A DNA stretch of 10,454 nucleotides from a virus (lineage: Duplodnaviria; Heunggongvirae; Uroviricota; Caudoviricetes). The position numbers were made by a program, and so were the translations under genes. How positions within the stretch are numbered: the first letter of the stretch is position 1; every line of letters begins with the position of its first letter. Location of the stretch: the IMG/VR virus record IMGVR_UViG_2541047595_000021; one strand, written 5' to 3'. This document shows, in pieces, positions 587 through 10,454 of the stretch. The notes beneath the pieces are model-generated. The model was given only the letters and a program-made list of their open reading frames with translations, was not told the origin of the DNA and did not search any database.

Positions 587-1792
587 GTGGCAAGAACGAC
601 ACGCCCCCTGACCAACACAGAAGTTCTGCGCGCTAAAGCGTTAGAAAAGGATCTAACGTTACATGATGGCGATGGCCTTTTTCTGCTCATTAAAACGAAC
701 GGTAAGAAGTTGTGGCGTTTCCGTTATCAACGTCCAGCAACAAAACAGCGGACAATGATGGGGCTTGGTGCTTTCCCCGCCCTTTCACTTGCTGATGCTC
801 GACGGTTAAGAGCGGATTACCTTGCTTTGTTGGCTAATGGTATAGACCCACAAGTTCAAGCTGAATTTATCGAAGAACAACAACAGATAGCTCTAGACAG
901 TATTTTTTCGACTGTTGCGACCAACTGGTTCCAGATAAAAAGCAAAAGTGTTTCCCCTGATTACGCTAAAGATATATGGCGCTCGCTGGAAAAAGACATA
1001 TTCCCAGCCATTGGAGAGATTCCCGTCCAACAAATCAAAGCCCGTACGCTAGTCGAAGCTCTTGAGCCAATCAAAGCTCGTGGGGCTCTTGAAACTGTAC
1101 GTCGACTGATACAGCGGATTAACGAGATAATGATTTACGCTGTAAACACTGGTCTGATTGATGCCAATCCAGCATCGGGGGTTGGGATGGCCTTTGAGAA
1201 GCCCAAAAAGCAAAACATGCCAACATTGCGGCCAGAAGAATTGCCGAAGCTGATGCGTTCTTTAGCTATGTCAAACCTATCTGTTTCGACTCGCTGTCTC
1301 ATTGAATGGCAACTCCTGACACTTGTGCGTCCTTCTGAAGCCTCTGGTGCTCGTTGGGCAGAGCTCGATCTTGATACAAAGCTCTGGACTATTCCGGCAG
1401 AGAGAATGAAAGCCAAACGAGAGCACATTGTTCCTTTATCACCCCAAGCTTTAGATATTTTGGAAGTGATGAAGCCCATCAGTGCTCATCGTGAACATAT
1501 TTTTCCTAGCAGAAATGATCCTAAGCAATCAATGAATAGCCAAACTGCTAATGCAGCTTTAAAACGTATTGGTTTTGGAGGAAAGCTAGTTGCTCATGGC
1601 CTCCGATCTATTGCAAGTACAGCAATGAATGAAGCTGGGTTCAATGCGGATGTTATTGAAGCAGCTTTAGCTCACAGTGATAAAAATGAAGTTCGTAAAG
1701 CCTATAATCGTTCAACCTACCTGGTTCAAAGAAAAGATTTAATGAACTGGTGGGGATTATTTTGTATTAGTTCGAAGAGTGTGAATAAATGA
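587..1792 (+). CDS. int: Tyrosine recombinase, P4-type integrase (N-terminal arm-binding DUF4102-like domain), ssrA-specific
   Basis: GTG start with AAGGAG 9 nt upstream. N-terminus LTNTEVLRAKA...DGDGLFLLIKTNGKKLWRFRYQ is the typical P4-integrase arm-binding motif. C-terminal catalytic motifs HGLRS and AHSD...RKAYNRSTY (H-x-x-R ... Y). Directly adjacent to a tmRNA gene. Confidence 0.9.
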   Translation: MARTTRPLTNTEVLRAKALEKDLTLHDGDGLFLLIKTNGKKLWRFRYQRPATKQRTMMGLGAFPALSLADARRLRADYLALLANGIDPQVQAEFIEEQQQIALDSIFSTVATNWFQIKSKSVSPDYAKDIWRSLEKDIFPAIGEIPVQQIKARTLVEALEPIKARGALETVRRLIQRINEIMIYAVNTGLIDANPASGVGMAFEKPKKQNMPTLRPEELPKLMRSLAMSNLSVSTRCLIEWQLLTLVRPSEASGARWAELDLDTKLWTIPAERMKAKREHIVPLSPQALDILEVMKPISAHREHIFPSRNDPKQSMNSQTANAALKRIGFGGKLVAHGLRSIASTAMNEAGFNADVIEAALAHSDKNEVRKAYNRSTYLVQRKDLMNWWGLFCISSKSVNK

Positions 1793-3426
1793 ATACTTAT
1801 AAGCAAACCATTAAACAAAAATCAAGATTAAACATATGGGAAACAGCTATCGCAAGGTTGACAACCCAAGCTGAGAGCTCAAGAATCTTAGAATCAAACT
1901 ATTTAACAAATCTTATAGATTTTTGTTGGAAAGATACACTAAATCAAGTTGCTATATATGATGAGAGCATTGTATTACGCAATGGTTATAATTGGGTGCA
2001 AAAAATAAGTGATAGTTATAAACCTAAAGCTGCAAGTGAACTAAAGATTGCTTTCTTTTGCGGCCCTGAACCAGAAAATGACTTGGATATACTCTTATCA
2101 TTAGATGTTAGAATAGAAAATGTCTGGGCTTTTGAAATTGATAACAATTCATATAACACTGCCTTACAAAAAGCTAAAGAGTTCTATCCAAAATTAAAAA
2201 TATTCCCTGGTTCTATTGGGGAGTTTTTTAAAACCACACATCATACCTTTGATATTATTTACCTTGATTTTACAAGTTCGTTATTGACTAAAAAGAGCCC
2301 TCCCCTTGGAGTAATAAACTCTGTATTTGACAATCAGGCCCTATCAGACTTAGGGGTGTTAATTGTAAACTCTTGCGAACCCGATGCTAACGAAGATAAC
2401 GCAACATTTCTTGCAAGTTATTTCATGAATCACGAAATAATTGAATCATCTGTAATTAACAAAACTAATGATGATGATTATGATGATAACTATGATTATT
2501 TTTCACTTTTTATTGAATCCCCCACATCACAAGGATACGATGATATAAAGTCATTAGCAAAAGTTATAAAGACTAACATATCCGGAGCGTACTCTGCCTT
2601 TTCAACAAGTTATGTAATGCACTATGCTTCAATGATTAGTCCAACACTTCGTTTTCTACAAAATAACTCATTAAAAAGACAATTATTTAATGATAAAAAA
2701 GCTGAAGTAACTGCAACCTTTGCAGAAATTGGATCAACTGACTTTTTCAAAACATTAATATCAACAGATGGTGAAGCATCGTCCCCCTCCATTTTAGGAA
2801 ACAGATTCCTAGATAATGAAAGCTACCCATTCTGGAATTTCATTGATTCATTAAATGGCTCAGGAACAAGTATTTCATCTTACTTTAAGAGCTTTTTCAC
2901 CACCGCTAAAGAAGGTGTATCCATTTTAAATGCCGTGCAATTTCTGGAATCATTTCACTCAATGCTTACAGGAGCTAGAAAGCTATTATCTCAGCGAATG
3001 CTCAATGCAATACCCCAAATAATAAAAGCAATTCCTGATGCTAGAGGTGGTTTATTCTGTGACATTCCTTTACCCCACCTTTGGTTAGAGGTGGCACTTA
3101 ATCAGTTAGGTGCACCATACCATGTAAACGTGAAAATGCATAATCGATGGAAATATAAAGCAAAAACTCGCACAATGCATACGGACTTATTTGTTTTTGA
3201 TAGATGCAGAGGTTTTTATGACTCAATGCCTATGATAGATCAATACGAAACGATTCTTACTAACATCGAAGAACAAATTTTCGCTAGGTGTTGTATTGAT
3301 ATTATTGGTAAGCAATGTCGTTGGCCAACTCCAAAACTTTATTTTGGTTCGAACCTAATTGGAATAAACGAGTCTGATTGGTCTGAGTTCGCCGAACTTC
3401 GTGAAAGAGAAATTATAAAAGAATAA
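1789..3426 (+). CDS. Hypothetical protein, 545 aa; sole cargo gene in the int-to-cos hotspot; candidate anti-phage defence or abortive-infection protein, function unknown
   Basis: Long uninterrupted ORF whose ATG overlaps the int stop (ATGA). Strongly AT-rich with AT-rich codon usage (AAA, AAT, ATT, TTA), unlike the GC-rich psu/delta/sid/alpha backbone. Residues about 85-165 (KIAFFCGPEPEND...VWAFEID...FDIIYLDF) look like a Rossmann-type nucleotide-binding fold, but this is a weak guess. Acidic D/Y-rich segment NDDDYDDNYDY encoded at 2467..2499. Confidence 0.8.
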   Translation: MNTYKQTIKQKSRLNIWETAIARLTTQAESSRILESNYLTNLIDFCWKDTLNQVAIYDESIVLRNGYNWVQKISDSYKPKAASELKIAFFCGPEPENDLDILLSLDVRIENVWAFEIDNNSYNTALQKAKEFYPKLKIFPGSIGEFFKTTHHTFDIIYLDFTSSLLTKKSPPLGVINSVFDNQALSDLGVLIVNSCEPDANEDNATFLASYFMNHEIIESSVINKTNDDDYDDNYDYFSLFIESPTSQGYDDIKSLAKVIKTNISGAYSAFSTSYVMHYASMISPTLRFLQNNSLKRQLFNDKKAEVTATFAEIGSTDFFKTLISTDGEASSPSILGNRFLDNESYPFWNFIDSLNGSGTSISSYFKSFFTTAKEGVSILNAVQFLESFHSMLTGARKLLSQRMLNAIPQIIKAIPDARGGLFCDIPLPHLWLEVALNQLGAPYHVNVKMHNRWKYKAKTRTMHTDLFVFDRCRGFYDSMPMIDQYETILTNIEEQIFARCCIDIIGKQCRWPTPKLYFGSNLIGINESDWSEFAELREREIIKE

Positions 3427-3441
3427 ATCTCCACGCGCGCA

Positions 3442-3460
3442 GTGCTTTCCCCGCCTCGCC
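3442..3460 (-). other. cos: cos site: 19-nt cohesive-end sequence of P2/P4-type phages
   Basis: Plus strand reads GTGCTTTCCCCGCCTCGCC, the reverse complement of GGCGAGGCGGGGAAAGCAC, which I recall as the shared P2/P4 cohesive end. Position between the hotspot and psu matches the P4 prophage layout. Confidence 0.65.
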
Positions 3461-3563
3461 CGCCCGCTTTGCGGGGCGGTTTTAATGCAGTTGCACTGAC
3501 ACGCTCAGACCGCGCTGGGAATGGCGCGGTTTGCAGAAAATGAGGCAGGGAAACGCATGCAAA

Positions 3564-3594
3564 GCCATGCACCTTATCGATGCATGGCTTTTTT
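3564..3594. terminator. Hairpin terminator between cos and psu (perfect 8-bp stem, T6 on the plus strand, A-tract on the other side; possibly bidirectional)
   Basis: GCCATGCA-ccttatcga-TGCATGGC followed by TTTTTT. Lies just past the 3' end of psu (minus strand) and downstream of the cargo gene (plus strand). Confidence 0.55.
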
Positions 3595-3624
3595 CAGTAA
3601 AAACGGGCGGATTTTCGGGGAATT

Positions 3625-4197
3625 TTACACTGACTGACGTGATGCAAGTTGCGCACTTTTACGCGAAAAAATCATGTTCTGCGCAGGGGTGAATTTTTCA
3701 CGGCTGTCATCCACCGAAGCCACGTCAGGCCTGAATCCGATGGTCGTTAAAATGTCGCTATCCTGTGCGGAATAATTAATTTTTTCACCCTTCGCAAGCC
3801 AGGACAGAAGGGCTTCACGCAGGGCATCTGTGGCACGCTGTATGGCACAGTTTCGGGCAATGGCCGTCAGCTCACTGTAGCCCATCAGCTCCGGTGCCAG
3901 TGCGGCCGCCAGTACTGTGCCGTGCTGCTGCATAAAATCATTCAGCCGGTCGCGGATGCTGATGTGCTGAACGGCTTCATGCGAACGAATATAACGACCG
4001 GCGGCCTGATTCACCTGCCATTTTCTGACTTCGATAATATTGCGTAATTCGTCCAGGCGGCTGACGTTTCTGCCTTCTCCTGACAGAAGCCGCAGATATT
4101 CCTGTTCGGCCGCTGCCAGCTCATTTTTGCGTTGCAGCCATGCTGCTTTGTTATTCTGACAGGTGTCAAAGGCCTGCTGTAAGGCTGTGCTTTCCAT
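3625..4197 (-). CDS. psu: Psu (polarity suppression protein; capsid-decorating, Rho-antagonist), 190 aa
   Basis: 190-aa ORF starting MESTALQQAFDTCQNNKAAW, as I recall P4 Psu. Correct position and orientation at the end of the sid-delta-psu operon. Confidence 0.85.
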   Translation of the reverse strand: MESTALQQAFDTCQNNKAAWLQRKNELAAAEQEYLRLLSGEGRNVSRLDELRNIIEVRKWQVNQAAGRYIRSHEAVQHISIRDRLNDFMQQHGTVLAAALAPELMGYSELTAIARNCAIQRATDALREALLSWLAKGEKINYSAQDSDILTTIGFRPDVASVDDSREKFTPAQNMIFSRKSAQLASRQSV

Positions 4198-4270
4198 CGT
4201 TATCTCTTTCTCATCATGCTGAAGAATAAAAATACGGTGTGCGGCGACGGCCGGGGTTAACCGGCAGCCC

Positions 4271-4771
4271 TCATTCCAGACGCAGCGAATATGATTGTGT
4301 TTTTAACCGTACTGGCGGCAGTTCCTGTTTTTCATGCAGGCGTTCTGCCAGTTCGTCCGGCGTGACCGGGCGGACAATGAAGCGGGTGATGGTCTGAAGC
4401 GTTTTAAACACCAGACCACAGTCCGGATCCGTGCACACATAAAAACGCTCGGTGACTTCCTGAGACAGACGCCGCGATGTTCTTGACAGCGCAAGGCCTT
4501 TACATCTCCGACAACAATATCCGGTAACAAGCATTCTTTTCGGGCGTTTCATACTGCCGGAGGCTGACGTCAGTGAATCGCGGTATCTCTGTTTGCCTGA
4601 AATGTATTCCATTCCTGAATCTTTACTGTCAGAGAAAAAGCTTTCACTCGCTTCAAATGTCTCAGAGCAATAAATATTCCGGCACTGTGCAATCATTATC
4701 TTGGTGCCATCGTCCATGAAATGTGCGCGACGGGTGTGAGCAACATGTCCACACGACGGGCAGTAAATCAT
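4271..4771 (-). CDS. delta: Delta (Ogr/Delta-family zinc-finger late transcription activator, duplicated Ogr-like domains), 166 aa
   Basis: Two C-x2-C...C-x4-C zinc-finger units (CPSCGHVAH...CRNIYC and CCRRCKG...CTDPDC) typical of Ogr/Delta. Length 166 aa as in P4. Start overlaps the sid stop (ATGA). Confidence 0.85.
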   Translation of the reverse strand: MIYCPSCGHVAHTRRAHFMDDGTKIMIAQCRNIYCSETFEASESFFSDSKDSGMEYISGKQRYRDSLTSASGSMKRPKRMLVTGYCCRRCKGLALSRTSRRLSQEVTERFYVCTDPDCGLVFKTLQTITRFIVRPVTPDELAERLHEKQELPPVRLKTQSYSLRLE

Positions 4772-5502
4772 GACAGCAGTCCTCTGGCCTTAAGCTCTGC
4801 TCCCTGCTGGTCTATTTTGTCCTGCCACACCTTGCGCTGTGCCGGTGTGCCTGCCACCTCATAATCCATGTGCGGGAGTGTTGCCGCTGACAGTCCGGTC
4901 AGCCGGAGAACCGGCTCGCCGGTGAGGCTGATTTGCATCTGTTTAATTTTCTGTTCCAGCGATGATTTCACCTGCTGCATGACAGCTTTATCGGGTGCGA
5001 CGTAGCCCTGATGGCCGGTGGTGTTGGCGAGCGGATTTTCCTGTACCAGGATACTCAGATGCATTGCCCGGACAAGCGCCTCACAGGTTTCATTCAGGGC
5101 GTGTTCCAGCTCATGCTCTGCATACAGACTCAGAAGGTGATGATGTGCCTTCCGGTAGGCGGTGGCCGTGCTGTCACACGCCCCTTTCAGGCGTTCACGT
5201 TCGAAATTCAGCACCACGGCCAGATTGTCATATTCCTGTACCAGCTCCCGGCGTGCCACGCGCTCAATGTGGCGCTGTTTCAGCTCGTCGCTCAGGACAC
5301 CACCGGCTGCACGAAAGGCCGTGCGCCAGTCGTCAGCGTCGTTTCCGTTGGCCTGCGTCAGCGCATTTTTTTCCTGCTCTGCCCGTTCAATGGCCGTGAT
5401 GGTCTCATCCATCAGGCGGGCGTTCTCAAGATGAGCGGCTCTGGCCTTTTCCAGTTGTGCCAGTGCGGGTTGCAGATATTCAGGGATGGTGTTGTCAGAC
5501 AT
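4768..5502 (-). CDS. sid: Sid (capsid size determination, external scaffold), 244 aa
   Basis: The track ORF runs to a GTG at 5520, but the ATG at 5502 (MSDNTIPEYLQ...) has a GAGGAG 7 nt upstream and gives 244 aa, matching P4 Sid. Coiled-coil-like, Ala/Glu/Leu-rich composition. Confidence 0.8.
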   Translation of the reverse strand: MSDNTIPEYLQPALAQLEKARAAHLENARLMDETITAIERAEQEKNALTQANGNDADDWRTAFRAAGGVLSDELKQRHIERVARRELVQEYDNLAVVLNFERERLKGACDSTATAYRKAHHHLLSLYAEHELEHALNETCEALVRAMHLSILVQENPLANTTGHQGYVAPDKAVMQQVKSSLEQKIKQMQISLTGEPVLRLTGLSAATLPHMDYEVAGTPAQRKVWQDKIDQQGAELKARGLLS

Positions 5503-5574
5503 TTTCCGGCTCCTCGTCACTTCAGGTTAAGAAAATTGTGACGTACACCGGACAACAACACGACGCATTGCAGA

Positions 5575-5592
5575 TGTGCCAGCCCTGACACA
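5575..5592 (-). promoter_or_regulatory. TGT-N12-ACA activator box (Delta/Ogr/Cox-type) of the candidate late promoter Psid
   Basis: TGTgccagccctgacACA lies about 70-90 nt upstream of the sid ATG. P2/P4 late promoters are activated through a TGT-N12-ACA dyad centred near -55. Confidence 0.5.
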
Positions 5593-5671
5593 GGAGACTC
5601 ATCCTCACACCGGCAAGCCAGGAAAAGGTCGCAGGAAAAACCGGCTTACTGTTTGTTTTTTTATATTTTAC

Positions 5672-5775
5672 TGTTCACCTCTGTTCACCATAAGAAAAAA
5701 GATAAGTAATACAGTAAGTTAAAGGGTGAACAATCGCAGTAATGACTGTTCACCGTCTGTTCACCACTGTTCACC
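5672..5775. repeat. Cluster of six TGTTCACC octamer iterons (five direct, one inverted) in an AT-rich region; candidate alpha-binding cis replication region (crr) or origin
   Basis: TGTTCACC at 5672..5679, 5682..5689, 5747..5754, 5758..5765 and 5768..5775; inverted copy GGTGAACA at 5725..5732. This octamer is the P4 alpha-protein binding iteron in ori and crr, as I recall. Confidence 0.65.
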
Positions 5776-5879
5776 CGTTGATGGGCTTTTTGTGCTGTTT
5801 ATTACTGTTTATTTTTATTAATTCGCCGGGAATGAATAAGAAAAAACGATTTGTATTTCACTATAAAAATTACGAATTG

Positions 5880-5909
5880 CTTTAAGTGGCTTTAAATGAC
5901 TTTAAGTGG
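5880..5909 (+). repeat. Three tandem 10-bp units (CTTTAAGTGG / CTTTAAATGA / CTTTAAGTGG), helically phased; candidate protein-binding sites upstream of PLL
   Basis: Direct tandem repeat read from the sequence, 26 nt upstream of the PLL TGT-N12-ACA box. Confidence 0.5.
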
Positions 5910-5934
5910 AGATGAACAAAAAACACACAAGCAT

Positions 5935-5952
5935 TGTAAGGCTGCCGGAACA
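5935..5952 (+). promoter_or_regulatory. TGT-N12-ACA activator box of the candidate late leftward promoter PLL driving vis
   Basis: TGTaaggctgccggaACA centred about 110 nt upstream of the vis ATG, a position consistent with a -55 activator site plus leader. Confidence 0.5.
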
Positions 5953-6054
5953 AATCCCCCCTGTTGCGTCTGCCAAAAATATTCACAAAATAAAGCGCTA
6001 CCCGAAGCCGGACGGACTTATCCGGTGCTGTATGGACATTAACGAGGTAGCCCG

Positions 6055-6321
6055 ATGCAAGCTGTTTTTTCTTCCCCGTCTCCCGCCCCTGTGACGCCAC
6101 TGATGCCGCTGCCGGACATCACGCAGGAACGTTTTTTACGTCTGCCGGAAGTAATGCACCTGTGCGGCCTGTCACGCTCGACCATCTATGAACTCATCCG
6201 TAAGGGGGAATTTCCGCCGCAGGTGAGTCTTGGCGGTAAAAATGTGGCCTGGCTGCACTCTGAAGTCACCGCATGGATGGCCGGGCGCATTGCCGGACGC
6301 AAACGGGGGTACGACGCATGA
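6055..6321 (+). CDS. vis: Vis/AlpA-family helix-turn-helix regulator and excision factor, 88 aa
   Basis: [47 protein letters not shown] is a typical AlpA/Vis-type HTH. 88 aa as in P4 orf88 (Vis). GAGG ribosome-binding site 7 nt upstream. Confidence 0.8.
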
Positions 6322-6917
6322 TGATGCCCGCTCTGCAAAAACTCCCTTTTTCTGGCTTGCCTTTTTCCGGCATTTGCGGATATAGTTTTCCCGCTGCCGC
6401 AAAATCGGCAGCCGGGCGTGGAAACCCGAGCAATCTAACGGCGACATATGACGCGCCATGCGTCTTTTTTTGTGTCGCAATCAACGCCACAGAGCGCCAG
6501 ATTATGGTGTGGTGTGTGGTCAGTCGAGCAGATGGCACTCCGTGCATCCTGCCCGCGTCCGCTCATTATGCCGCAGAGTCAATGGTAGCTCAGGCGGGGC
6601 AGCCTCCGGGCTGGCCGGTATCCGTTAGAGCCGGTATTTCCACCCCCGTCTGGGCTATCGCCATCGAGCGTGGAAACTCCGGCGATAGCGTAACCTGCTA
6701 TCTAACGGAGGCTGCCATCATGGCTACAACCCTTACCCCTTCACACCCTGAATTTGTCTTTGTGTTTGCGGCTGTCCGTCGCGCAGACCGTCATCCCCGT
6801 ATCTGCATGCTTCGCACCGTCGCCGGTGATGAACGCAGTGCCCGCCGTTCCCTTGTCCGTGACTATGTGCTCTCCCTTGCTGCCCGTCTGCCGGTGGTGG
6901 AGGTGTCCCGTGCGTAA
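6318..6917 (+). CDS. Long ORF (199 aa from the ATG overlapping the vis stop) spanning the immunity region; possibly kil-like with a nested in-frame gene, or largely spurious
   Basis: Open frame across a GC-rich regulatory region. Its ATG overlaps the vis stop (ATGATGATG). P4 is reported, as I recall, to have nested kil/eta genes in this region. No good ribosome-binding site, and long spurious ORFs are common in this GC-rich stretch. Confidence 0.3.
6357..6386 (+). promoter_or_regulatory. Candidate sigma70 promoter (PLE-like): -35 TTGCCT, 18-nt spacer, -10 TATAGT
   Basis: Hexamers at 6357..6362 and 6381..6386, just downstream of vis and upstream of the seqA element. Pattern match only. Confidence 0.35.
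6418..6441 (+). promoter_or_regulatory. seqA-like element (GTGGAAA...TCTAACGG), RNA target complementary to seqB
   Basis: Contains GTGGAAA and TCTAACGG separated by 9 nt. The reverse complement of 6622..6643 contains the same two blocks. Confidence 0.5.
6450..6471 (+). terminator. Short hairpin plus T7 tract; possible intrinsic terminator or attenuator within the immunity region
   Basis: GACGC-gccat-GCGTC followed by TTTTTTT. The stem is only 5 bp, and the position between seqA and seqB is awkward if seqB must be transcribed from the same promoter. Confidence 0.3.
6622..6643 (+). ncRNA. cI: seqB-like core of a putative CI-type immunity RNA (antisense to seqA and seqC; RNA ends undetermined)
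   Basis: CCGTTAGAgccggtaTTTCCAC is the reverse complement of the GTGGAAA...TCTAACGG blocks found at 6418..6441 and 6669..6708. This three-way arrangement matches the P4 CI RNA immunity system as I recall it. Confidence 0.45.
6669..6708 (+). promoter_or_regulatory. seqC-like element; its TCTAACGG block overlaps the Shine-Dalgarno of the ORF starting at 6720
   Basis: GTGGAAA (6672..6678) and TCTAACGG (6701..6708), with the GGAGG ribosome-binding site at 6707..6711. A 9-bp hairpin (6652..6660 with 6681..6689) encloses the GTGGAAA block. Confidence 0.5.
6720..6917 (+). CDS. Small protein, 65 aa (eta-position nested ORF), function unknown
   Basis: ATG at 6720 with a strong GGAGG 8 nt upstream. 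In frame with, and nested in, the longer ORF. Its stop overlaps the GTG start of the next gene. Confidence 0.45.
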
Positions 6918-7197
6918 TAAAAAAGCCCCTCAGACCGTCTCAGCACGTCATGACGCCCGTGAACACCTCAGCATTGAGGCTTACCATAAGCTCAACCGCG
7001 CCAGCGCCGTATCCCAGTTTGTTGGGGGTGATTTGATTCACCGTGAACTCTCCGGCCTGCATCAGCTCTACATTCCGCATATTTTCAGCTACCTGAATGA
7101 AGATATTGATTTTGTGCTGAATGAGCTGAAAGCCAAAGGCCTGTGCCGCGATTTTCTCGCCCAGCAGAAAGACCGGGGAGACAGGACGCATGTTTGA
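6910..7197 (+). CDS. Epsilon-position protein, 95 aa; possible helper-prophage derepression factor (antirepressor)
   Basis: GTG start with GGAGG 6 nt upstream. Sits immediately upstream of orf151 in the P4 order. The track ORF from 6754 is an upstream extension in the same frame without a ribosome-binding site. Assignment is by position and size only. Confidence 0.5.
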
Positions 7198-7645
7198 TTT
7201 TCCCCAGCCCGGTGAGATTTACCGTTCTGCCGGTTTTCCCGATGTGGCCGTGGTCGGCATTCTGGAAGACGGTATTCCGTGGGAAATGCCGTACCGCTGC
7301 CCGGACATTGTCTGGAACCCGTACCGCCGTAAATTCAGTATCCTTGTGCGTATCCTCGCTGACGGGCGCACCACAGACATCCCGCTGGGGCGTTTTCTGC
7401 GGGAATTTACCTGTGACCGTCCTGACCTGTTTAAACGCAGCCCCGTAAACCGGCATGCGGTACTGAAAGAAATGGCCGGAGACCCGGAATTACAGAAATG
7501 GCGGGAGAAATATCTGGATATTTACCCGCAGGACACTGTTCCGGTCAGCCGGGCGGCACCGGTGGCGCGGGAATGGCGGGAAATTCCCCGCACGGAGCCT
7601 GACCCGGAAATCACCCCGGATAACAGTTACCGCAATTATCTGTAA
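7190..7645 (+). CDS. Conserved P4-family protein orf151 (151 aa), function unknown
   Basis: Exactly 151 aa, in the P4 position between the epsilon-position gene and alpha. Start overlaps the upstream stop. Confidence 0.7.
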   Translation: MFDFPQPGEIYRSAGFPDVAVVGILEDGIPWEMPYRCPDIVWNPYRRKFSILVRILADGRTTDIPLGRFLREFTCDRPDLFKRSPVNRHAVLKEMAGDPELQKWREKYLDIYPQDTVPVSRAAPVAREWREIPRTEPDPEITPDNSYRNYL

Positions 7646-7673
7646 TTAAAAAACGACACCCGAAAAATTAAAT

Positions 7674-7699
7674 GTGCGTATTCGCGCAGGGATACGCAC
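7674..7699 (+). other. 8-bp-stem hairpin between orf151 and orf106; possible attenuator or processing site, no T-tract
   Basis: GTGCGTAT-tcgcgcaggg-ATACGCAC read directly from the sequence. Confidence 0.3.
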
Positions 7700-7780
7700 G
7701 TCTTCAGGAGACGCAGATATGCCTTATCAGTTAATGCAACCGGCACGGAATGCAGTCATCTGTCACAGGGAGGAAAACAA

Positions 7781-8101
7781 ATGAAAACACCCTTACCGCC
7801 CGTCTTACGCGCTGCCCTTTACCGTCGCGCTGTCGCCTGTGCCTGGCTGACCGTGTGCGAACGTCAGCACCGCTACCCGCATCTCACCCTTGAGTCACTG
7901 GAAGCGGCCATCGCCGCTGAGCTGGAAGGCTTTTATCTGCGCCAGCACGGTGAGGAAAAAGGGCGTCAGATAGCCTGTGCCCTGCTGGAAGATTTAATGG
8001 AATCCGGCCCCCTGAAGGCCGCGCCGTCGCTGTCCTTTCTCGGGCTGGTTGTGATGGATGAACTCTGTGCCCGTCACATAAAAGCGCCGGTACTGCACTG
8101 A
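7781..8101 (+). CDS. Conserved P4-family protein orf106 (106 aa), function unknown
   Basis: 106-aa ORF immediately upstream of alpha, as in P4. A 21-codon upstream ORF (7719..7784) ends in an ATGA overlap with its start. Confidence 0.65.
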
Positions 8102-8115
8102 AGGAGAACAACACC

Positions 8116-10454
8116 ATGAAAATGAACGTAACCGCCACCGTCAGCCATGCGCTCGGCCACTGGCCGCGTATTCTCCCGGCGCTGGGGATTCAGGTGCTGA
8201 AAAACCGTCATCAGCCCTGTCCGGTCTGTGGCGGGAGTGACCGCTTCCGTTTTGATGACAGGGAGGGGCGCGGCACCTGGTACTGCAATCAGTGTGGTGC
8301 CGGTGACGGCCTGAAACTGGTTGAAAAGGTGTTTGGTGTCTCCCCGTCCGACGCGGCCGCAAAGGTGGCTGCCGTGACCGGCAGCCTGCCCCCGGCTGAC
8401 CCGGCAGTGACGGCTGCCGCCGGTGCTGAAACAGACGCTGCCCGGAAGAACGCCGCCGCACTGGCACAAACCCTGATGGCGAAAACCCGTCCCGGAACCG
8501 GTAACGCCTACCTGACCCGCAAGGGCTTTCCCGGCCGGGAATGCCGGATGCTGACCGGCACACACAGAGCCGGTGGCGTGAGCTGGCGTGCCGGTGACCT
8601 TGTGGTGCCACTGTATGACGACAGCGGCGAACTGGTTAACCTTCAGTTAATCAGTGCTGACGGCCGTAAGCGCACCCTGAAAGGCGGACAGGTCAGGGGC
8701 ACCTGTCACACCCTTGAAGGACAGAATCAGGCCGGAAAACGTCTGTGGATAGCGGAGGGATACGCGACCGCACTTACCGTGCATCACCTGACCGGTGAAA
8801 CGGTGATGGTGGCGCTTTCTTCCGTGAACCTCCTTTCTCTGGCCAGCCTTGCCCGGCAGAAGCATCCGGCCTGTCAGATTGTCCTTGCCGCAGACCGTGA
8901 CCTCAGCGGTGACGGCCAGAAAAAAGCCGCCGCAGCCGCAGATGCGTGTGAAGGTGTTGTTGCCCTGCCGCCGGTCTTCGGTGACTGGAATGATGCCTTC
9001 ACGCAGTACGGCGGGGAGGCCACCCGTAAGGCCATTTACGATGCCATCCGGCCACCGGCTGAAAGCCCGTTCGACACCATGAGTGAAGCGGAGTTTTCCG
9101 CCATGAGTACCAGCGAAAAGGCCATGCGTATCTATGAGCATTACGGCGAGGCGCTCGCGGTCGATGCCAACGGCCAGCTTCTGTCCCGCTATGAAAATGG
9201 TGTCTGGAAGGTGCTGCCGCCACAGGACTTTGCCCGGAATGTGGCCGGGCTGTTTCAGCGGCTGCGCGCGCCGTTCTCCTCCGGGAAGGTGGCCTCCGTG
9301 GTGGACACCCTGAAGCTGATTATTCCGCAGCAGGAAGCCCCCTCCCGCTGCCTGATTGGCTTTCGTAACGGCGTGCTCGACACGCAGAACGGCACGTTCC
9401 ACCCGCACAGTCCGTCACACTGGATGCGTACCCTGTGCGATGTGGATTTCACCCCGCCGGTGGAAGGGGAAACGCTGGAAACCCACGCCCACGCGTTCTG
9501 GCGCTGGCTTGACCGTGCCGCCGGTGGCCGTGCGGAAAAACGCGACGTGATTCTGGCCGCACTGTTTATGGTGCTGGCAAACCGCTATGACTGGCAGCTC
9601 TTTCTGGAGGTGACCGGTCCCGGCGGCAGCGGCAAAAGTATCATGGCCGAAATAGCCACCCTGCTGGCCGGGGAGGATAACGCCACGTCGGCCACCATTG
9701 AGACGCTGGAATCCCCGCGTGAACGTGCCGCGTTAACTGGCTTCTCACTGATACGCCTGCCGGACCAGGAAAAATGGAGCGGCGACGGAGCCGGACTCAA
9801 GGCCATCACCGGCGGCGATGCAGTGTCCGTTGACCCGAAATACCGGGATGCGTACTCCACGCATATCCCGGCGGTGATTCTGGCCGTGAACAATAAAATA
9901 ACCCGATGCGCTTCACCGACCGCAGCGGCGGCGTGTCACGCCGGCGGGTGATTATTCACTTCCCGGAACAGATAGCCCCGCAGGAGCGCGACCCGCAGCT
10001 TAAGGACAAAATCACCCGCGAGCTGGCGGTCATCGTGCGTCACCTGATGCAGAAGTTCAGCGACCCGATGCTCGCCCGGTCACTGCTTCAGTCCCAGCAG
10101 AACTCAGACGAGGCACTGAACATCAAACGGGATGCCGACCCGACGTTTGATTTTATCGGCTATCTGGAAACCCTGCCGCAGACCAGCGGCATGTATATGG
10201 GGAACGCCAGTATCATCCCGCGTAATTACCGTAAATACCTCTATCACGCCTATCTGGCCTACATGGAGGCAAACGGCTACCGGAATGTACTCAGTCTGAA
10301 AATGTTCGGGCTGGGGCTGCCGGTGATGCTGAAGGAATACGGACTGAATTACGAGAAGCGCCATACCAAACAGGGGATACAGACCAACCTGACACTGAAA
10401 GAGGAAAGCTACGGCGACTGGCTGCCAAAATGTGACGCCCGTGCAACAACCTGA
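8116..10454 (+). pseudogene. alpha: Alpha primase-helicase (zinc-ribbon primase, TOPRIM, SF3/D5-type helicase, C-terminal DNA-binding domain), interrupted by a +5 frameshift near 9892..9901
   Basis: AAGGAG ribosome-binding site 9 nt before the ATG. Zinc-ribbon CPVCGG...CNQC, TOPRIM acidic motifs (IAEGY, LAADRD), Walker A VTGPGGSGKS. Reading frame 1 stops at 9951 and frame 0 continues from 9906 to the stop at 10452..10454. Combined length is about 777 aa, as for P4 alpha. The breakpoint coincides with a tandem AATAA-AATAA. Confidence 0.75.

Follow-up and report, generated by a model that had tools for sequence, protein, structure and literature searches.

Replication of the satellite phage P4 reportedly starts bidirectionally at ori and proceeds in the theta mode, with the alpha protein said to link ori to a second site, crr, and with Cnr (ORF106) reportedly tuning alpha binding. 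The minimal origin, ori1, is said to be 123 bp in length, to comprise the six iterons plus an AT-rich region of 35 bp and to be inactivated by small insertions. In the P4 record (X51522), an 'origin of DNA replication' is annotated at 9086-9809 and, within it, the stretch 9185-9525 carries six copies of an 'ori type 1 repeat' and three of an 'ori type 2 repeat'. The 'cis required region for replication' (crr) has its own entry at 4291-4590, downstream of alpha and next to attP, and is built from two 120-bp direct repeats with five type 1 iterons in mixed orientation each (5 of the 10 exact, the rest degenerate); according to published work, alpha binds this region too, and crr is needed in cis together with ori and is essential for replication. 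From N- to C-terminus, alpha consists of a bacterial-type primase, an SF3 helicase and a winged-helix domain that binds DNA (PMC2777425), and both alpha binding and alpha-dependent initiation have been described for P4 itself (PMC4234260; Ziegelin 1993 as cited in PMC8628076). P4-type origins share with other iteron-type theta origins, including pri-rep of an E. coli PICI and lambda ori with its O protein, the use of helix-phased arrays of short initiator sites which flank or enclose an AT-rich melting region. They differ from these in that their initiator is a single polypeptide (primase, SF3 helicase and winged helix) and in that they are bipartite, the second iteron site being ~4.7 kb away.

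P4 ori1 and its TGTTCACC iterons are already known and were described decades ago. Here, we compare with them an iteron cluster present in a 10,454-bp stretch of viral DNA (hereafter the window, i.e. the whole of the sequence analysed). What our analysis adds is modest: the ori1 architecture proves to be conserved throughout the family, ori and crr iterons co-vary, and there is a K/N difference at residue 750 of alpha.

Results

Six iterons in AT-rich DNA between sid and vis

Six exact copies of the octamer TGTTCACC, five direct and one inverted (Table 1), lie in AT-rich DNA between sid (4768-5502, - strand) and vis/ORF88 (6055-6321, + strand), exactly where a previous sequence-only reading had placed them, and no other exact copy occurs elsewhere in the window. 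In 200 dinucleotide-preserving shuffles, the octamer was found 0.37 times per window on average and twice at most, and six or more copies were never reached (0/200); with a composition-based Poisson estimate of ~1e-14 for six or more copies within 104 bp anywhere in the window, chance clustering is ruled out. An independent repeat scan recovered the same units, lengthened to 10 nt as (A/T)CTGTTCACC, at start-to-start distances of 10, 65, 11 and 10 nt; the six exact copies are spaced 10/43/22/11/10. GC content is 34% at 5640-5880 compared with 51% for the window and 28-30% in the flanks of the 35-bp spacer which interrupts the cluster (Table 1). This spacer probably represents the unwinding region of the element, a role that we infer.

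Iterons 3 and 4 form an imperfect dyad. A hairpin at 5725-5754 (- strand), which might be taken for a terminator, coincides with this inverted iteron pair and is not followed by a T-run, so that we dismiss the terminator reading.

On either side of the cluster, at 5646-5667 and 5792-5823, we also observed repeats rich in T, (T/G)(T/C)ACTGTTT(G/A)TT, which have an ACTGTT prefix in common with the extended iteron. These may be iterons that have degenerated, or unwinding elements.

Table 1. Positions in the window of the iteron cluster, its neighbouring repeats and the genes for alpha and ORF106, with P4 coordinates from X51522.
Feature	Position	Strand	Basis
Counterpart of P4 'origin of DNA replication' fragment (X51522 9086-9809)	5276..5999		coordinate transfer; no indels relative to P4
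Type 1 iteron 1 (TGTTCACC)	5672..5679	+	exact; P4 'ori type 1 repeat' 9406-9413
Type 1 iteron 2	5682..5689	+	exact; P4 9396-9403
AT-rich spacer inside iteron cluster, 35 bp, 20% GC	5690..5724		sequence and GC content
Type 1 iteron 3, inverted	5725..5732	-	exact; P4 9353-9360
Type 1 iteron 4	5747..5754	+	exact; P4 9331-9338
Type 1 iteron 5	5758..5765	+	exact; P4 9320-9327
Type 1 iteron 6	5768..5775	+	exact; P4 9310-9317
Three tandem 10-bp 'ori type 2 repeats' (CTTTAAGTGG / CTTTAAATGA / CTTTAAGTGG)	5880..5909	-	P4 9176-9205, annotated type 2
ORF106 (DUF5375)	7781..8101	+	Pfam E = 2.9e-63; P4 ORF106
Alpha N-terminal fragment: Zn-ribbon, Toprim primase, D5_N, truncated SF3 helicase	8116..9951	+	ORF list, Pfam, alignment to P4 alpha
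AATAA 5-bp tandem duplication, frameshifts alpha	9892..9896	+	absent from P4 and from the 99.9% sister genome
Detached ORF, alpha residues 596-777: rest of helicase (RRR arginine-finger region) and winged-helix origin-binding domain	9906..10454	+	Pfam Pox_D5

The cluster aligns with the P4 origin inside a P4-type satellite at ssrA

Positions 3461-10454 of the window are collinear with, and 98.2% identical to, the reverse complement of phage P4 (X51522 11624-4636). The octamer, which the sequence-only reading had taken for the alpha-binding site, is indeed the P4 type 1 iteron, a feature that X51522 marks in ori as well as in crr. Around the cluster, positions 5560-5900 match P4 9185-9525 with 97.9% identity over 341 bp, all within the annotated rep_origin (9086-9809), and base-by-base alignment equates the cluster with P4 9310-9413, with no change in any of the six iterons, in their spacings or in the three type 2 repeats. 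The two origins share their position between sid and ORF88/vis as well as the order, orientation and spacing of their TGTTCACC iterons and the type 2 repeats, and they differ by seven substitutions per 341 bp, none in an iteron; the only two that fall within the cluster are both located in the AT-rich spacer.

The element in the window also differs from P4 in being integrated at ssrA, in carrying another integrase and other cargo and in having a frameshifted alpha gene. Its order reads attL, int, cargo, cos, psu, delta, sid, iteron cluster, vis, epsilon, ORF151, ORF106, alpha, starting from the tmRNA gene ssrA (40-402) and a tyrosine integrase (587-1792) and with the P4/P2 cos junction at ~3435-3479. 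ORF106 is the putative copy-number regulator gene cnr of P4. In the nearest complete E. coli genome (NZ_CM128543, hereafter the sister genome, 99.9% identical), the element lies between smpB-ssrA and ypjA and is ordered in the same way. The integrase is of the PRK09692 type and 401 aa long, unlike P4 Int (440 aa), and this fits the frequent integrase swapping among P4-like elements reported in PMC8628076.

Between integrase and cos, in the position of the P4 anti-phage 'hotspot', we noted an ORF for 545 aa (ORF545, 1789-3426, + strand) without a match in Pfam, PADLOC, NCBIfam, PHROGs or PDB sequences. It corresponds to WP_021572920, listed as 'hypothetical' single-gene hotspot cargo (Rousset et al. 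2022, Table S1). Other P4-like elements integrated at ssrA carry SIR2, NACHT or SEC-C genes at this spot, and ORF545 is a candidate for an uncharacterised defence gene.

A second iteron cluster downstream of alpha and outside the window had also been anticipated, and this is borne out by crr, which is found there in P4 and in the sister genome. In the latter, it lies intact directly after alpha and is ~97% identical to P4 crr. Since the window stops exactly on the alpha stop codon, its own crr is to be expected ~46 bp past the window end.

A 5-bp duplication splits the initiator gene

Alignment to P4 and Pfam searches confirm that alpha, as previously suspected, is frameshifted: a duplicated AATAA divides the gene into ORFs for 611 aa and 182 aa. 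The former (8116-9951) matches Zn_Ribbon_Prim, Toprim, D5_N and the SF3 helicase family DUF5906, the last truncated at residue 593, and consists of 593 native plus 18 out-of-frame residues. The latter (9906-10454) is 100% identical over its residues 76-175 to PDB 1KA8, the P4 origin-binding domain. As a consequence of the frameshift, the helicase fragment is deprived of the arginine-finger region and the winged-helix domain. An alpha gene with a perfectly conserved origin-binding domain is thus present in cis, yet five duplicated base pairs part this domain from primase and helicase. We consider it unlikely that the 182-aa ORF supplies a free origin-binding protein, as no Shine-Dalgarno sequence is present before its ATG (alpha M596) and there is no translational coupling, the stop codon of the upstream ORF being located 45 nt past that ATG.

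Among 1,078 E. coli genomes with the alpha segment, there is no full-length match of at least 99% to the version that bears the duplication, and the full-length matches listed have 94.8% identity, which is the value a 5-base gap yields. The sister genome differs from the window, besides the AATAA duplication, by six substitutions only. Because the lesion is absent from this genome and from nearly all E. coli genomes with the segment, it is either recent or a sequencing artefact.

Abutting the duplication, at 9885-9892 within alpha, lies a near-iteron, CGTGAACA (reverse complement TGTTCACG). It encodes V-N of the helicase VNNN motif, and exact TGTTCACC occurs at the same codon position in ~14 diverged loci. 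Rather than an internal origin, CGTGAACA is probably a coding coincidence, as it specifies part of VNNN; the internal origin that has been published, ori2, is not known to contain type 1 iterons.

The ori1 architecture is conserved among P4-like satellites

With alpha as query and one genome taken per species, we assembled 80 P4-like loci (alpha identity 57-99%) from Enterobacter, Citrobacter, Klebsiella, Raoultella, Pantoea, Erwinia, Serratia, Pectobacterium, Yersinia and other Enterobacterales. Clusters of exact TGTTCACC recur among them 1.6-2.6 kb upstream and 55-315 bp downstream of alpha. A motif-free search came to much the same regions, GTGAACA being the most clustered 7-mer 1.6-2.6 kb upstream and 55-330 bp downstream of alpha in most loci of at least 78% identity. 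In Pantoea-type loci, this search shows that both regions change to CTTCACC, with YCTTCACC at both sites. Using the relaxed motif NNTTCACN, the upstream cluster is seen in 61 and the downstream cluster in 54 of the 80 loci.

The upstream layout (+ + - + + +, spaced 10/43/21-22/11/10) is kept down to 57% alpha identity, and 94% of 281 successive inter-iteron distances come within 0.15 turn of whole 10.5-bp turns as opposed to 30% if distances were uniform. Identity to the window is 90% in iteron columns and 53% in spacers, a contrast that is inflated since extraction was anchored on the motif core; the 35-bp spacer is well conserved in 57 diverged loci. The type 2 repeats, by comparison, are not conserved (27% identity in other genera), which suggests that they probably lie outside the core origin and may be an accessory peculiar to one lineage.

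Element by element, the iteron variant at ori goes with that at crr (n=38, uncorrected for phylogeny), the Spearman coefficient being 0.76 for the 3' T variant and, for C at position 2, 0.54. Such agreement is expected if a single protein reads both sites. As for the protein, among elements with ...CACC iterons at ori and crr, 27 of 35 have K at alpha residue 750 (HTK|QG; window ~10368-10370), and 24 of 25 elements with ...CACT iterons have N there, a correlation confounded by phylogeny.

Discussion

Homology to the mapped P4 fragment, six iterons spaced near the helical repeat, an AT-rich block and a location between the divergent genes sid and vis are all found at this locus, and to our minds it is about 95% probable that the cluster belongs to a P4-type satellite prophage at ssrA as the iteron half (ori/ori1) of its bipartite origin; no feature of the sequence speaks against its identity with P4 ori. 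In the following, we weigh this against three other views of the repeats.

With alpha split into a 611-aa and a 182-aa ORF, one might argue that the cluster is a decaying relic whose iterons, now that the initiator is dead, are non-functional leftovers of a defective prophage. We find this improbable, as functional P4 has the identical six iterons, iteron spacing and type 2 repeats, as the rest of the element (int, cos, psu, delta, sid, vis, epsilon and cnr) looks intact and as the AATAA duplication is missing from the sister genome as well as from 1,077 of the 1,078 E. coli genomes with the alpha segment. If the lesion is recent (or an artefact), the origin has had no time to decay. So the earlier suggestion that the sites may be orphaned stands in one respect, namely that there is no functional initiator in cis, but not in the other, for the site itself is undecayed and has kept six iterons and a spacing identical to P4.

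Even less likely, we think, is a main role of the repeats as a transcriptional operator which alpha or another regulator binds to control divergent late promoters on the sid side and the vis/alpha side. This would agree with the position of the cluster in the 550-bp divergent intergenic region of sid and vis, and in iteron plasmids, initiator binding at the origin often affects nearby promoters. The P4 record, however, labels the segment a replication origin, the octamer recurs at crr, which is a non-promoter site past the alpha terminator, and helical phasing around an enclosed AT-rich block is an origin-type feature. A scan of 5450-6100 for sigma-70-like promoters was empty and says little, because P4 late promoters depend on an activator. 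A secondary regulatory effect of the cluster may nonetheless exist.

The view with the least to commend it is that of the sequence-only reading, which saw a crr-like element here and which is refuted: the type 1 octamer is shared with crr and cannot by itself tell ori from crr, but the cluster aligns with P4 9310-9413 rather than with the separately annotated and differently built crr (4291-4590), no long direct repeat of the crr kind is present at 5520-6060, the iterons are exact and not partly degenerate, the position is 2.3 kb upstream of the alpha start instead of downstream of its terminator by the attachment site, and the true crr sits after alpha in the sister genome, outside the window. 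Because X51522 annotates the matching stretch as origin, we call the cluster ori, and the appropriate annotation label is ori1, not crr.

Taking the cluster as ori1, a working scheme can be put together largely from the P4 literature. Alpha would bind the six sites, which lie on one face of the helix around the 35-bp AT-rich stretch, and melting would probably begin in this spacer; alpha would then unwind and prime the DNA, and replication would start without a host initiator. The second iteron cluster after alpha, crr, would be needed in cis. The conserved helical phasing and the conserved spacer that we see across the family fit the minimal ori1 reported for P4. In the present copy, where alpha is broken after residue 593, no protein joins the helicase to the DNA-binding domain, and the frameshift is the reason why we do not expect firing in cis. 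The origin is intact but would be silent unless a compatible alpha comes in trans, a form of rescue we infer with the help of the literature.

How readily might such help be available? Of 5,426 complete E. coli genomes, 1,051 (~19%) contain the ori segment, which is found at 1,253 places altogether and up to four times per genome; roughly one in six of the genomes that have it hold more than one copy. Being so common, and multi-copy in some genomes, the segment makes supply of alpha from another P4-like element plausible in general. None of 12 E. coli RefSeq matches sampled has an annotated feature beneath the ori match (0/12), and standard PGAP annotation appears to miss P4 ori. An origin long described and a segment this common in E. 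coli carry little weight as a discovery. The conserved architecture together with ori-crr co-variation does, on the other hand, provide a simple sequence signature by which origins of P4-like satellites can be annotated.

For the satellite studied here, the private lesion in its initiator gene suggests a copy that can probably still excise and be packaged and would not amplify by itself unless alpha is provided by another P4-like element. More tentative, and in our opinion rather doubtful on present sequence comparisons, is the idea that the wing of the winged helix sorts P4-like satellites into replicon specificity groups, with residue 750 reading the 3' base of the iteron. If true, an initiator-less origin such as this one could respond only to a co-resident satellite from its own group, and compatibility or cross-activation between satellites would follow from their iteron and wing variants.
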